Shown here piece after piece: positions 7,690-43,359 of a DNA stretch of 64,000 nucleotides. The stretch comes from Spirochaetia bacterium. GTDB taxonomy: Bacteria; Spirochaetota; Spirochaetia; SP-2023. The notes beneath the pieces were generated by a model, which ran no database searches, was not told where the DNA came from, and saw nothing but the letters and a program-made list of their open reading frames with translations. Numbering within the stretch: the stretch's first letter is position 1; the number at the start of each line of letters is the position of its first letter. Where the stretch lies: the NCBI GenBank assembly GCA_965225855.1, contig CBDDCK010000005.1, positions 1,312,001 to 1,376,000 of the forward strand. The letters run 5' to 3'. Both the position numbers and the translations under genes were made by a program.

Positions 7690-7967
7690 TGGTTGTTTCA
7701 GCCTTTGGCTATATTGGCTTCCCGTATTTACCCAGGCTATAATTGGTAAAAGCAACCACGATAAAAAAACTTACCAAGGCTGCAATTGATAAAAGCAGCC
7801 TTAATAAAAAAATTTACAGCCTTGACAAAAAAATTTGTAGCCTTAATAAAAAAATTTACAGCCTTGGTATTTTCTCCATACCAAGGCTATAATTGGCAAA
7901 AGCAACCACGATAAGAAAACTTACCAAGGCTGTAATTGGCCAATGCAAGCGTTGCAACAACCAAAAC
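7690..7967. repeat. 3' repeat region of lipoprotein cassette 1
   Basis: Several CC(A/C)AGGCT(A/G)(T/C)AATTG...AAAAGCA units, 3 x 21 bp tandem at 7797-7859, hairpin AGCCTTGGTAT/ATACCAAGGCT at 7860-7888. Confidence 0.85.
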
Positions 7968-10172
7968 CTACTTACCAAAATTCAAAACTTGAATAGCATT
8001 GGTTGGGTCTGCTGTGCTACCAATTCCAAATCCTGCTGCTGCTTCCAGGTTGTATGCACCATTACCATCACGAACACCAGCCTGAACCAGTATCTTATTG
8101 GCTTTGGCTTTTACACTACCGCTTAAAGTAATTATTAAGTAGGCTGTATTTGCATTAGAACCTGTGGCTGTGTTTTCACCTGCGGTTGCGTGCCGGGGTA
8201 ATGTGTATTTCTTACTACCATTACCGGATACAAGCGTCAATTTGCTAAAGTCCCAGTCTGCAACTGCTGTCGGTAAACCACTACCGAAAATCCGTAACTG
8301 GCCACTATTACGATAGTAGTATACGTTGTTGATCTGGCTTGCGTAGCCACTAACGGTAATAGGGTTGCTTGTGTCTTCTGCGCTACCATCTGCAAATCCT
8401 GCTGCTGCTTCCAGGTTGTATGCACCAGCATTATCACTATCACCATCCTGAACCAGTATCTTATTGGCTTTGGCTTTTACACTACCGCTTAAAGTAATAT
8501 TTAAGCTTATTGCACTTGCTTTAGAACCTGTGGCTGTGTTTTCACCTGCGGTTGCGTGCTGGGGTAATGTGAATCTATTACTACCATCACCGGATACAAG
8601 TGTCAATTTGGTGAAGTCCCAGTCTGCAACTGTTTTCGGTAAAATGCTACCACTAATATATAACAAGCCTGTAATAGCATCGTAGATTGCACTGGTGATG
8701 CTGGCTGTATACCCACTAACGGTAATAGGATTGGTTGTGTCTGCTGCGCTACCACCTGCAAATCCTGCTGCTGCTTCCAGGTTGTATGCACCAGCATCAT
8801 CACTTTTACCATCCTTAACCAATATCTTCTCGGCTTTGGTTTTTTGACTACCCCTGAAAGTAATCGTTAAGCTTGTTGCACTTGCTTTAGAACCTCCGAC
8901 GAAGTTTGTAGGTGAATATGAGCCTCTCTGAGGTAATGTGAATCTATTAGTACCATCACCGGATACAAGTGTCAATTTGGTGAAGTCCCAGCTATCCACT
9001 TTTCTATAGTCCCGGTCATACACTAACAATGCTTTTGGTAAATTAGTACCTGTAATCACTAACACGCCTGTAATAGCATTGTAGGTTGCACGGGTAATTG
9101 CGGGTGGGTGTCCACTAACGCCCAAGGCTTTGGCTGTATTTAAACCCGCCCAAGTACCAGTGCTAGTAAGCAACCCTTTTTTTAGACCATTGCTATCCAT
9201 ACCGTCCTTGCCATTCAGAGTAGCTTTATGTTGATCGGTAAGTCTAAGCCAAATGGCTGTGCCATCTCTTTTAATGCGGTACTTACCTTTTGCAAGACTG
9301 CGACTATCTTCACCAGTGGCTGTGGCATCTGCAGTATAGGAACTTAAGGCTAAGCCATCTACCGTGATAGTTTGGATTTGTGCTTGTTGCGCACTAGCTA
9401 AGTTAGAACCTTGTAAAGTTAGCAGCGCCGTGCCAACATGGTAGGTTGCACCGGTAATTGCGGCTTCAGGCGACTGCTCTTCGGTTTCGGTCTTAGACTG
9501 CTTATCTTCGACTTGTTCGGTTTGTTCGGCTTCGGGTAGTTCAGGCGACTGCTCTTCGGTTTCGGTATTAGACTGCTTATCTTCGACTTCTTCAGTTTGT
9601 TCGGCTTCGGGTAGCTTAGGCGACTGCTCTTCGGTTTCGGTATTAGACTGCTTATCTTCGACTTCTTCAGTTTGTTCGGCTTCGGGTAGCTTAGGCGACT
9701 GCTTATCGGGTATATTCCTAACGGTTAAGTCTTTGGCTGTATTTAAACCCGCCCAAGTACCAGTGCTAGTAAGCAACCCTTTTTTTAGACCATCGCTATC
9801 CATACCGGGCTTGCCATTCAGAGTAGCTTTATGCTTGTCGGTAAGTTTCAGCCAAAGTGCTGTGCCATCGTTTGCAATACGGTACTTACCTTTTGTAAGA
9901 CCGCGACTATCTGGCCCAGTGGCTGGGTCATCTGCAGTATAGGAACTTAAGGCTAGGCCATCTACCGTGATAGTTTGGATTTGCGCTTCTGTAGGACTTA
10001 AGTTAGTACCTTGTACGGTTAACAGCGCCGTGCCAACATCGTAGCTTGCACTGGTGATTGCAGGCCCAGACGGCCCAGAAGATCGATCATCGTCATCGGG
10101 TGGTGCGCAGGCAAAGGCCATAAAGGCCAGTAGCAAGGCTAATGGCAATAAAAATAGTTTGAGCTTATACAT
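7968..10172 (-). CDS. Modular surface lipoprotein, paralog 1 (A-linker-A-B-B-B')
   Basis: GGAGG RBS, ATG at 10172, lipobox MAFAC, Ig-like repeats ITSASYDVGTALLTVQG (A) and ITRATYNAITGVLVITG...WDF.KL...YNLEAAAGF (B), 3 x 25 aa acidic linker. Confidence 0.85.
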   Translation of the reverse strand: MYKLKLFLLPLALLLAFMAFACAPPDDDDRSSGPSGPAITSASYDVGTALLTVQGTNLSPTEAQIQTITVDGLALSSYTADDPATGPDSRGLTKGKYRIANDGTALWLKLTDKHKATLNGKPGMDSDGLKKGLLTSTGTWAGLNTAKDLTVRNIPDKQSPKLPEAEQTEEVEDKQSNTETEEQSPKLPEAEQTEEVEDKQSNTETEEQSPELPEAEQTEQVEDKQSKTETEEQSPEAAITGATYHVGTALLTLQGSNLASAQQAQIQTITVDGLALSSYTADATATGEDSRSLAKGKYRIKRDGTAIWLRLTDQHKATLNGKDGMDSNGLKKGLLTSTGTWAGLNTAKALGVSGHPPAITRATYNAITGVLVITGTNLPKALLVYDRDYRKVDSWDFTKLTLVSGDGTNRFTLPQRGSYSPTNFVGGSKASATSLTITFRGSQKTKAEKILVKDGKSDDAGAYNLEAAAGFAGGSAADTTNPITVSGYTASITSAIYDAITGLLYISGSILPKTVADWDFTKLTLVSGDGSNRFTLPQHATAGENTATGSKASAISLNITLSGSVKAKANKILVQDGDSDNAGAYNLEAAAGFADGSAEDTSNPITVSGYASQINNVYYYRNSGQLRIFGSGLPTAVADWDFSKLTLVSGNGSKKYTLPRHATAGENTATGSNANTAYLIITLSGSVKAKANKILVQAGVRDGNGAYNLEAAAGFGIGSTADPTNAIQVLNFGK
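9465..9705. repeat. 75 bp coding tandem repeat x3 (QSPKLPEAEQTEEVEDKQSNTETEE)
   Basis: Near-identical units visible in both DNA and protein. Confidence 0.9.
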
Positions 10173-43165: not shown

Positions 43166-43359
43166 GGTTTTGTTTCAGCCTTGGTAAGTTTTTTATCAAG
43201 GCTGCTTTTATCAATTACAGCCTTGGTATGGAGAAAATACCAAGGCCAAAACAACCAAGCTAAAACGTTGCCATAAAAATTAAGAGAGTCTCTTAATGCC
43301 CAACAAGAGAATTTCTTAATACCTAACAACAGAGTTTCTTAATACCCAACAAGAATTTT
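43166..43359. repeat. 3' repeat region of cassette 4
   Basis: AGCCTTGGTAAGTTTTTTATC unit, hairpin GCCTTGGTAT/ATACCAAGGC at 43220-43246 (same as cassette 1), 3 x 23 bp tandem at 43291-43359. Confidence 0.8.

Follow-up and report, generated by a model that had tools for sequence, protein, structure and literature searches.

How does one gene, together with the DNA on both its sides, become scattered over a whole bacterial genome if no element that could move it lies beside it? This question is raised by a window of 64,000 nucleotides from a Spirochaetia bacterium (assembly GCA_965225855.1; contig CBDDCK010000005.1, here C5), which corresponds to C5:1312001-1376000 of a 2.71-Mb genome in 5 contigs and harbors four paralogous lipoprotein genes with shared flanks, here denoted as cassettes. 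Coordinates without a contig name refer to the window. An earlier note on this DNA had described gene plus flanks as a dispersed unit located at junctions of accessory blocks, acting as a variable surface antigen and as a homology anchor for cargo, with no recombinase in view. The analysis presented here suggests that the family probably owes its spread to natural mini-Mu units: the transposase of a transposable phage would have moved the cassettes in trans, recombination between copies would have shuffled them afterwards, and the result is likely a repertoire of variable surface proteins. Such a spread is likely because 40 full-length copies carry one or both phage ends and five complete units (left end, gene, right end) are bordered by a 6-bp duplication.

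Size and distribution of the lipoprotein family

A tblastn search with the four window proteins yielded 112 loci, found on every contig and on both strands (60 on the plus and 52 on the minus strand) at a spacing of about 24 kb, a copy count that bears out the description as a dispersed unit. Intact genes for proteins of more than 500 aa, all with a common signal peptide and an A[LF]AC lipobox, are present at 102 loci. The remaining ten comprise two divergent copies (45 and 53) without the shared flanks, one shorter intact gene, two genes cut by contig ends, one frameshifted gene, one gene consisting of B modules only (see below), and three fragments. The coding DNA of the family amounts to 222 kb (8.2% of the genome), the cassette DNA including flanks to 334 kb (12.3%), and no two proteins are identical.

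The family was absent from all 40 other genomes of the class that were searched, including three congeners of 89-92% completeness. Full-length homologs beyond this genome are limited to eight proteins, which are encoded on ENA contigs. Read-derived contigs from the likely source sample (X1) and from a second study (X4, X6) pile up on the cassette about two orders of magnitude deeper than beside it; this depth gives no copy number, according to the warning of the tool, and it argues against an assembly artefact. In X1, a unique stretch between two cassettes (C5:41982-45603) is represented by one exact contig at depth 8 and a unique stretch beyond the cassette is covered at depth 20, possibly reflecting a mixed population. 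The two divergent copies (C5:353871-357557 and 572528-574798; 1279 and 1017 aa) show mixed A and B modules and a TTGACA-17-TAAATT site, lack the shared flanks, and are candidates for the ancestral gene.

Phage ends and target-site duplications

Masking of repeats revealed that some flanks stop sharply at a motif with a TGA terminus and two repeats spaced by 23 bp. These boundaries match the termini of a resident transposable prophage, mostly with 87-98% identity (range 77-99%), and the retained ends measure about 40 to 350 nt. A left end was found at 30 of the 112 loci, always upstream of the gene, and a right end at 27, always downstream; both point inward, and all 57 ends stand in the same register to the gene. 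These counts remain from 33 matches to the left pattern after removal of one chance match, the prophage itself and a 690-nt prophage fragment, and from 33 matches to the right pattern, of which three belonged to prophage copies, two to orphan fragments, and one was a left end matched twice. Among the full-length copies, 17 carry both ends, 13 only the left, 10 only the right and 62 neither (odds ratio of co-occurrence 8.1, p 3e-5).

Perfect 6-bp target duplications border five of the 17 both-end copies (32, 59, 80, 96 and 99), which form units of 2.7-3.5 kb; a column-wise model of the flanks predicts 0.02 such cases (P 2e-11). Duplications of 6 bp are also produced by phage B3, according to the accessible part of PMC8705779. 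The target duplications that the earlier note had proposed to look for are therefore present. Judged by their sequence, the both-end copies qualify as mobile insertion cassettes, since they combine defined ends, in five cases a duplication of the cognate length, and a transposase available only in trans.

The resident prophage and the search for mobilisers

The prophage occupies 36 kb at C5:1257677-1293766, which places it 18-54 kb ahead of the window. Its gene set covers transposase, transposition B protein and repressor, together with terminase, portal, capsid, sheath, tape measure and baseplate. A B3-like transposase, the transposition B protein, head and contractile tail genes and a size of about 36-39 kb fit the B3/BcepMu type. 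Its transposase (phrog_310; 586 aa, open frame, D-35-E spacing as read from the sequence) is the only rve transposase of the genome, lies about 37-39 kb before the window, and has its best phage matches in Pseudomonas phages Komp/B3 and in BcepMu (28-37%). The framing of the cassettes as recombinase-free is not supported for this reason: a cognate DDE transposase resides in a nearby prophage whose ends bound many copies. For the window itself the observation stands, as no transposase, integrase or reverse transcriptase was seen among the open reading frames (ORFs) scanned, which were a part of all ORFs, and genome-wide family searches placed none there.

In three prophage copies, the tail genes continue to the same right end, followed by three different flanks. 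The resident copy is, by its sequence, defective, and the two copies besides it are truncated at contig ends. A congener harbors a related prophage (55% transposase identity) of the same end design with motifs spaced by 23 bp; its genome has one left and one right end, and this prophage shows no duplication of its own. On contig C3, the flank of the prophage right end (C3:774-928) matches an internal stretch of the prophage at 94% identity, which suggests that one copy may have inserted into another. Two related transposable prophages each are found in the congeners G001 (C4 near 16000 and 882000) and G002 (C1 near 248000 and 2107000), and the two of G001 are 96-99.9% identical over long stretches.

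Searches for other mobilisers found no Y1/REP-type, reverse transcriptase or DDE_Tnp_1 protein in the genome, and no multicopy insertion sequence (IS) family, where IS families beyond DDE_Tnp_1 were covered by a scan for multicopy proteins only. Tyrosine recombinases number only two. The modules, the end motif and the transposase were also searched in viral, metagenome and genome contigs, which gave nothing except one 2.4-kb contig at 39%.

Protein architecture and mosaicism

The proteins consist of a lipoprotein leader, a module A of about 120 aa, usually an acidic repeat linker (L), and further A and B modules; the layout A-L-A-B-B occurs in 34 of 112 copies. An AlphaFold2 model of the A-B-B part of cassette 3, built on 53 sequences, shows three beta-sandwiches (pLDDT 93), and the family proteins are accordingly predicted to be rods of Ig-like repeats. 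A structure search, another check proposed earlier, supports an Ig-like fold of a generic kind and yielded no specific solved relative: Foldseek returned generic Ig matches (TM <0.4) among which no solved relative stands out, with module A barely covered, and the best structural match, the S-layer protein SbsC, is middling (VIA Z 8.2, rmsd 2.5, 94 aligned positions). Modules A and B align with each other over the first 25 columns only (probability 58%). The impression that the family is not among the described ones is upheld, since no match to known families above cut-off was obtained with Pfam and NCBIfam for the four window proteins or with PHROGs for one protein. The Atlas returned clusters without a name; SWM_repeat emerged as a weak lead that stays under the recognition threshold. 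Weak Pfam matches to CrtC were rejected, as no stretch passes. A profile of module B retrieved 515 representatives at E<=0.001, the top 150 being mostly giant proteins of 1000-7000 aa; among 18 matches scanned, DUF4347 occurs in four and RTX repeats in three.

The copies are mosaics. The first A and the last B module share their nearest neighbor in 9 of 100 copies. Among the 18 pairs whose first A modules are at least 98% identical, a single one also has last B modules at least 95% identical. A protein from another assembly combines the N-terminus of copy 82 (60 of 60 residues) with the C-terminus of copy 1 (59 of 60). Uncorrected pN/pS values, ratios that recombination can inflate, are 0.9 for the first A, 1.19 for the first B and 1.65 for the last B module (every second copy, 50-51 sequences), and the last B module shows alternating hypervariable positions along its first strands. 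Signal peptide, lipobox and mosaic sequences agree with the description as variable lipoproteins; surface exposure and a role as adhesin or antigen are putative.

Proposed mechanism and alternatives

The spread of the family can be pictured in five steps. An ancestral gene for an Ig-like repeat lipoprotein, resembling copies 45 and 53, would have come to lie between the phage ends of a deleted prophage; the flanks hold many prophage scraps. The unit would then have transposed as a whole, as the scar indicates for five copies, presumably by means of the prophage transposase. Recombination between copies would subsequently have exchanged 5' and 3' halves, modules and flanks, the mosaicism itself being observed, and would have parted left from right ends, broken most scars and spread passengers, such as a scrap of an hsdS gene. 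In the weakest step, the 62 end-less copies, among them cassettes 1, 2 and 4 of the window, may be older insertions that lost their ends or products of another duplication route. Finally, copies appear to be kept intact while the distal domain diversifies, as expected of host-facing adhesins or antigens.

Several observations weigh against this mechanism. Both ends are missing in 62 of the 102 full-length copies, and end-adjacent remnants add only three loci to those that carry an end, 43 in total. Twelve of the 17 both-end copies lack a duplication, and in five of these the left end is an internal passenger with one shared flank. Three matching 6-mers were found between different copies, where chance predicts 1.0 (P 0.09, not significant), so most partner halves cannot be traced. 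The end-bearing copies form no clade, as their nearest neighbor carries an end in 8 of 29 and 8 of 27 cases. The alleles of the five scarred copies are unrelated (76-100% identity by module), so that the gene now found in such a unit may differ from the one that transposed. An empty site for copy 32 did not appear among the joints listed (4 runs; contigs of the second study), where its right-end junction apparently lies at the same place with an overlap of only 20 nt. As assembled, the prophage is missing the outermost 11 nt of its consensus left end and shows no duplication of its own; a palindromic repeat also disrupts its portal and baseplate genes. A further point concerns the TTGAC-C7 promoter-like site of the cassettes, where the distance to the best -10 match is 15 nt in 84 of the 102 matched loci, and the canonical 17 nt is reached only in the copy with nine C (1 of 102). 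Since a sigma-70 scan made no call at this site, the promoter and any phase variation are best called putative. The C tract measures 6, 7, 8 or 9 nt in 16, 84, 1 and 1 of these loci, respectively, the longer tracts belonging to copies 59 and 83, and 5 loci lie outside the pattern.

The end-less majority, with its fuzzy boundaries at hairpins and C-rich tracts, is what would be expected if the family expanded mainly without any transposase, either through ectopic duplication or through recombination at palindromic repeats of the flanks, and a minority gained phage ends late and transposed a few times. A second sharp boundary class (TGTAAC, 13 cassettes) unrelated to the phage and the small number of proven insertions, only five, fit this account as well. 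Against it stand the fruitless search for other mobilisers and about 45 distinct end flanks, which imply many more than five end-mediated joining events; loss of ends and solo ends are known, moreover, for the TALE cassettes of Xanthomonas (PMC4337579, in its accessible part). The account differs from the mini-Mu mechanism in proportion only and appears possible, though it is not favored. A different objection starts from the phage: whole prophages or end-bearing derivatives might have inserted, and the lipoprotein gene, itself never transposed, been written in later by gene conversion via shared repeats. Flank scraps from many internal prophage positions, the varying lengths of the retained ends, the unrelated alleles of the scarred copies, and a 46-bp palindromic repeat common to flanks and prophage genes would agree with such a course. 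It is made improbable by the uniform register of all 57 ends and by the linker junction into which most left ends run, which indicates descent from one deletion derivative; nor was any left-right pair without a lipoprotein gene seen besides the prophage, and replacement would need flanking homology that is found only in an existing mini-unit.

That the cassettes are collapsed or chimeric repeats of the assembly could be suspected, as contigs break at cassettes and at prophage copies. The 102 open frames without a single identical pair of proteins, the pile-up of contigs on the cassette in both studies and the homologs on separate ENA contigs speak against it, and misassembly does not make target duplications at unique sites; such an artefact can practically be dismissed. 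Going beyond the mini-Mu mechanism, the bacterium might even have domesticated the transposition of the phage as an engine for surface antigens, in which the transposase seeds cassettes, recombination reshuffles modules, the C tract at the promoter-like site switches single copies, and the left-end segment may let helper capsids carry cassettes between cells. This extension seems rather unlikely at present; if true, it would constitute phage-built antigenic variation without an expression site or a silent archive.

Synteny and the homology-anchor idea

Whether cassettes coincide with synteny breaks was examined against the congener G003 (2,400,000 of 2,407,850 bases, simple ORF caller), with 1117 reciprocal best hits at a median protein identity of 64%. 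The coincidence that the earlier note had asked about is evident: none of 100 cassette intervals keeps its adjacency, where 15.5 would be expected from matched controls (P 9e-9); among the other intervals, 586 of 1012 do. Under a relaxed test, 3 of 100 cassette intervals do. This finding, the recombination among copies, a pair of copies (89 and 86) bracketing 26.5 kb with a matching 6-mer, and the position of cassette 1 in a segment that G003 lacks could be taken to mean that cassettes drive gain, loss and rearrangement of neighboring cargo. In the last case, rpsI abuts flgD in G003, and window 6019-11870 with cassette 1 is hence a 5.8-kb insertion relative to this genome.

The cassettes are nevertheless not shown to cause the breaks, because all five scarred simple insertions lie at breaks, too. 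A cassette is present at only 100 of 526 breaks, and cassettes at both ends of a broken G003 adjacency are not enriched (17 against 18.7 by shuffling; 2 against 9.3 for gaps below 400 nt). The bracket of copies 89 and 86 was rejected as a rearrangement, as its flanking genes are 58 kb apart in G003, not adjacent; in G001 as in G002, a clear ortholog was obtained for just one of these genes. Likewise, the cross-matched duplications were rejected as proof of rearrangement, their number being not significant. G003 is a single distant genome that cannot polarise events, and a preference for, or survival in, gaps between operons explains the pattern equally well without an anchor role. The role as homology anchor, a central claim of the earlier note, is therefore doubtful and not adopted here.

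Comparison with known systems

Multicopy variable surface proteins of spirochaetes include vls/vmp, tpr and Lig, the latter with Ig-like repeats, and the C tracts of the cassettes recall the homopolymer tracts near the promoters of tpr genes. The present family differs from these in its dispersed copies bounded by phage ends and gave no match above cut-off in the family databases named above. Mini-Mu elements are in use as laboratory tools, and insertion cassettes occurring in nature have been described with the ends of IS and Tn3 elements. The phage-end cassette system is real and represents a variant of mobile insertion cassettes, of which no earlier description was found in the literature searched; within the same scope, with subscription papers outside it, no example emerged of a host gene amplified in nature by the ends of a transposable phage.

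One of the two closest parallels is provided by the mobile insertion cassettes (MICs) of Xanthomonas TALE genes, which use the Tn3-family inverted repeats of TnXax1 (PMC4337579). As far as the available part of this source describes them, they likewise carry a passenger gene framed by ends taken from an autonomous element, have no transposase of their own, show duplications in some copies only, solo ends and end-less copies, and encode a diversifying modular repeat protein. In the cassettes, by contrast, ends and presumed helper belong to a transposable phage of B3 type with a 6-bp scar and not to an IS or Tn3 element, 12% of one chromosome is taken up by about 100 dispersed copies, and the cargo is a lipid-anchored Ig-like repeat protein instead of a secreted effector. 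Engineered mini-Mu(LR) units, the other close parallel (PMC5847225, accessible part), serve to integrate and amplify DNA in chromosomes; they share the arrangement of left end, cargo and right end and are amplified by phage transposition proteins in trans; their intramolecular replicative events lead to inversions or deletions. Unlike these, the present units are natural, carry B3-type ends, are known from sequence alone and occur in 17 both-end and 23 single-end copies, as compared to two to three in the laboratory according to that excerpt. With B3/BcepMu-type phages and the transposable prophages of Leptospira (PMC8705779, in the portion available), the transposase family, the 36-kb size and the 6-bp duplication are shared; here, in contrast, the resident copy is defective and the multiplied unit is devoid of phage genes.

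Anaplasma phagocytophilum msp2/p44 (PMC11946796) also comprises about 100 variable surface paralogs diversified by recombination. In the accessible text of that source, silent pseudogene donors serve one expression site, whereas here 102 full-length copies have their own promoter-like site, ribosome-binding site (RBS) and signal peptide, many of them with transposon ends. As silent donors are lacking, the system is not of the msp2/p44 type. Giant adhesin-like proteins with DUF4347 or RTX domains contain module B among their tandem repeats; the present proteins differ by a lipoprotein anchor, by only 3-8 modules and by many small genes instead of one giant, and Pfam found a DUF4347 or RTX domain in none of the four window proteins, which have a lipobox instead.

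A genome that devotes about 8% of its length to one protein family and 12% to cassette DNA, has no ordinary IS family, and is accompanied by three congeners without the family offers a direct way, open to testing, in which a large and dispersed family of surface proteins may arise within one species. It further provides a compact pair of B3-type end and transposase from a lineage with few genetic tools.

The four cassettes of the window

The four paralogs are located where the earlier note had placed them, with ORFs of 734, 614, 599 and 720 aa counted from ATG. All four have the same RBS, the TTGAC-C7 promoter-like site (10236-10262, 25422-25448, 39505-39531 and 40902-40928) and 3' flank repeats CCAAGGCT. 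A leader called identical is indeed present in all four and identical in three, cassette 3 being off by one base. The sharing of flanks is equally real, with repeats of 70-90% identity over 200-390 nt among the window cassettes, far above chance; the flanks are, however, mosaics of about 80-1500 nt rather than blocks of about 100-400 bp. Only cassette 3 carries a phage end in the window, and no window copy has both.

Cassette 1 (7968..10172, minus strand; 734 aa) encodes a signal peptide with lipobox AFAC and the modules A-acidic linker-A-B-B-B. Its 3' flank (7633..7967, minus) contains palindromic CCAAGGCT repeats and ends sharply at a TGTAAC-type boundary common to 13 cassettes, where a single-copy DUF268 gene is cut (7083..7632, plus; PF03269, 32.8 bits at a cut-off of 25), as had been noted. 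The 5' flank (10173..10568, minus) comprises the RBS (10170-10185), the leader (10192-10222) and the promoter-like site with its C7 tract. It is followed by the scrap of a Mu-like portal gene (10556..10720, plus), a further earlier observation that proved correct: 10556-10624 is 77% identical over 69 nt to the portal region of the resident prophage (E 2e-7). A 44-nt scrap (11659..11702, plus) at the start of a 284-aa ORF is 93% identical to the prophage, which suggests that 10550-11700 may be a decayed prophage remnant.

Cassette 2 (23513..25357, minus; 614 aa, A-linker-A-B-B) has a 3' flank with the shared repeats (23341..23512, minus) and a 5' flank (25358..25845, minus), of which the outer stretch (25762-25845) matches the prophage at 81% identity; a phage end is not present. 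Cassette 3 (37642..39441, minus; 599 aa, A-linker-A-B-B), whose A-B-B part was modelled as three Ig-like sandwiches, is bounded by a left end of the B3/BcepMu-type prophage (39807..40036, minus) that the earlier note had overlooked. This end has its TGA terminus at 40036 and two repeats of a predicted transposase-binding motif (40017-40025 and 39990-40001), and it points into the cassette. The 5' flank (39442..39806, minus) holds the promoter-like site and the linker that comes after the phage left end in most end-bearing copies. The adjoining 6 bp (40037..40042, minus) match the right end of another cassette 1.2 Mb away and represent one of the three non-significant cross-matches. The 3' flank (37326..37641, minus) includes the 46-bp palindromic repeat (37413-37495), also found inside prophage genes, and lacks a right end.

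Cassette 4 (41003..43165, plus; 720 aa, A-linker-A-A-B-B) is without a phage end and is surrounded by a core 5' flank (40728..41002, plus) with the promoter-like site and a 3' flank with shared repeats (43166..43407, plus). Further upstream lies a passenger module (40100..40727, plus) composed of a 46-bp tandem repeat and the hsdS scrap (ORF 40235-40675 on the minus strand), which has a weak Methylase_S match below cut-off (E 0.002). It had been taken for a separate block adjoining cassettes 3 and 4. It is a passenger within the 5' flank of cassette 4, since it recurs, in deleted versions, beside 26 cassettes, among them the duplication-bounded copies 32 and 99, where it lies inside the unit.

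Flanking repeats and further observations

Cassette flanks in general are patchworks in which hairpin repeats are mixed with scraps of host and prophage DNA, those of the prophage deriving from many of its internal positions. The 46-bp palindromic repeat forms 49 arrays, 42 of them beside cassettes and seven elsewhere. Besides the one in the window, arrays are located at C5:1264379-1264431, 1292763-1292822, 676244-676315, 1049668-1049852 and 1184628-1187768. As two of the arrays interrupt the portal and baseplate genes of the prophage, the repeat may be mobile by itself. The TGTAAC boundary class (7633-7680 in the window and 12 other cassettes) starts with TG and faces about 11 different outer flanks. 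It was considered as the partner end of the phage left end and rejected, as it has neither a partner nor a duplication with that end. Two TGTAAC look-alike sites are found away from cassettes (C5:1452844 and C5:956568).

Terminator-like repeats in common with cassette flanks occur in a second multicopy family (coiled-coil repeat proteins, 13 copies at 13 scattered loci) and in a tandem block of small lipoproteins (C5:1103700-1114000). Seven paralogs of about 630 aa alternate with TPR proteins in two clusters (C5:113205-130075 and 769209-785205), and 23 copies of a 46-bp unit form a tandem array with 94% match at C5:1442065-1443124. In the window, a promoter-like segment of 65 nt is duplicated (32767-32831 and 33116-33180, 77%) upstream of the cstA block.

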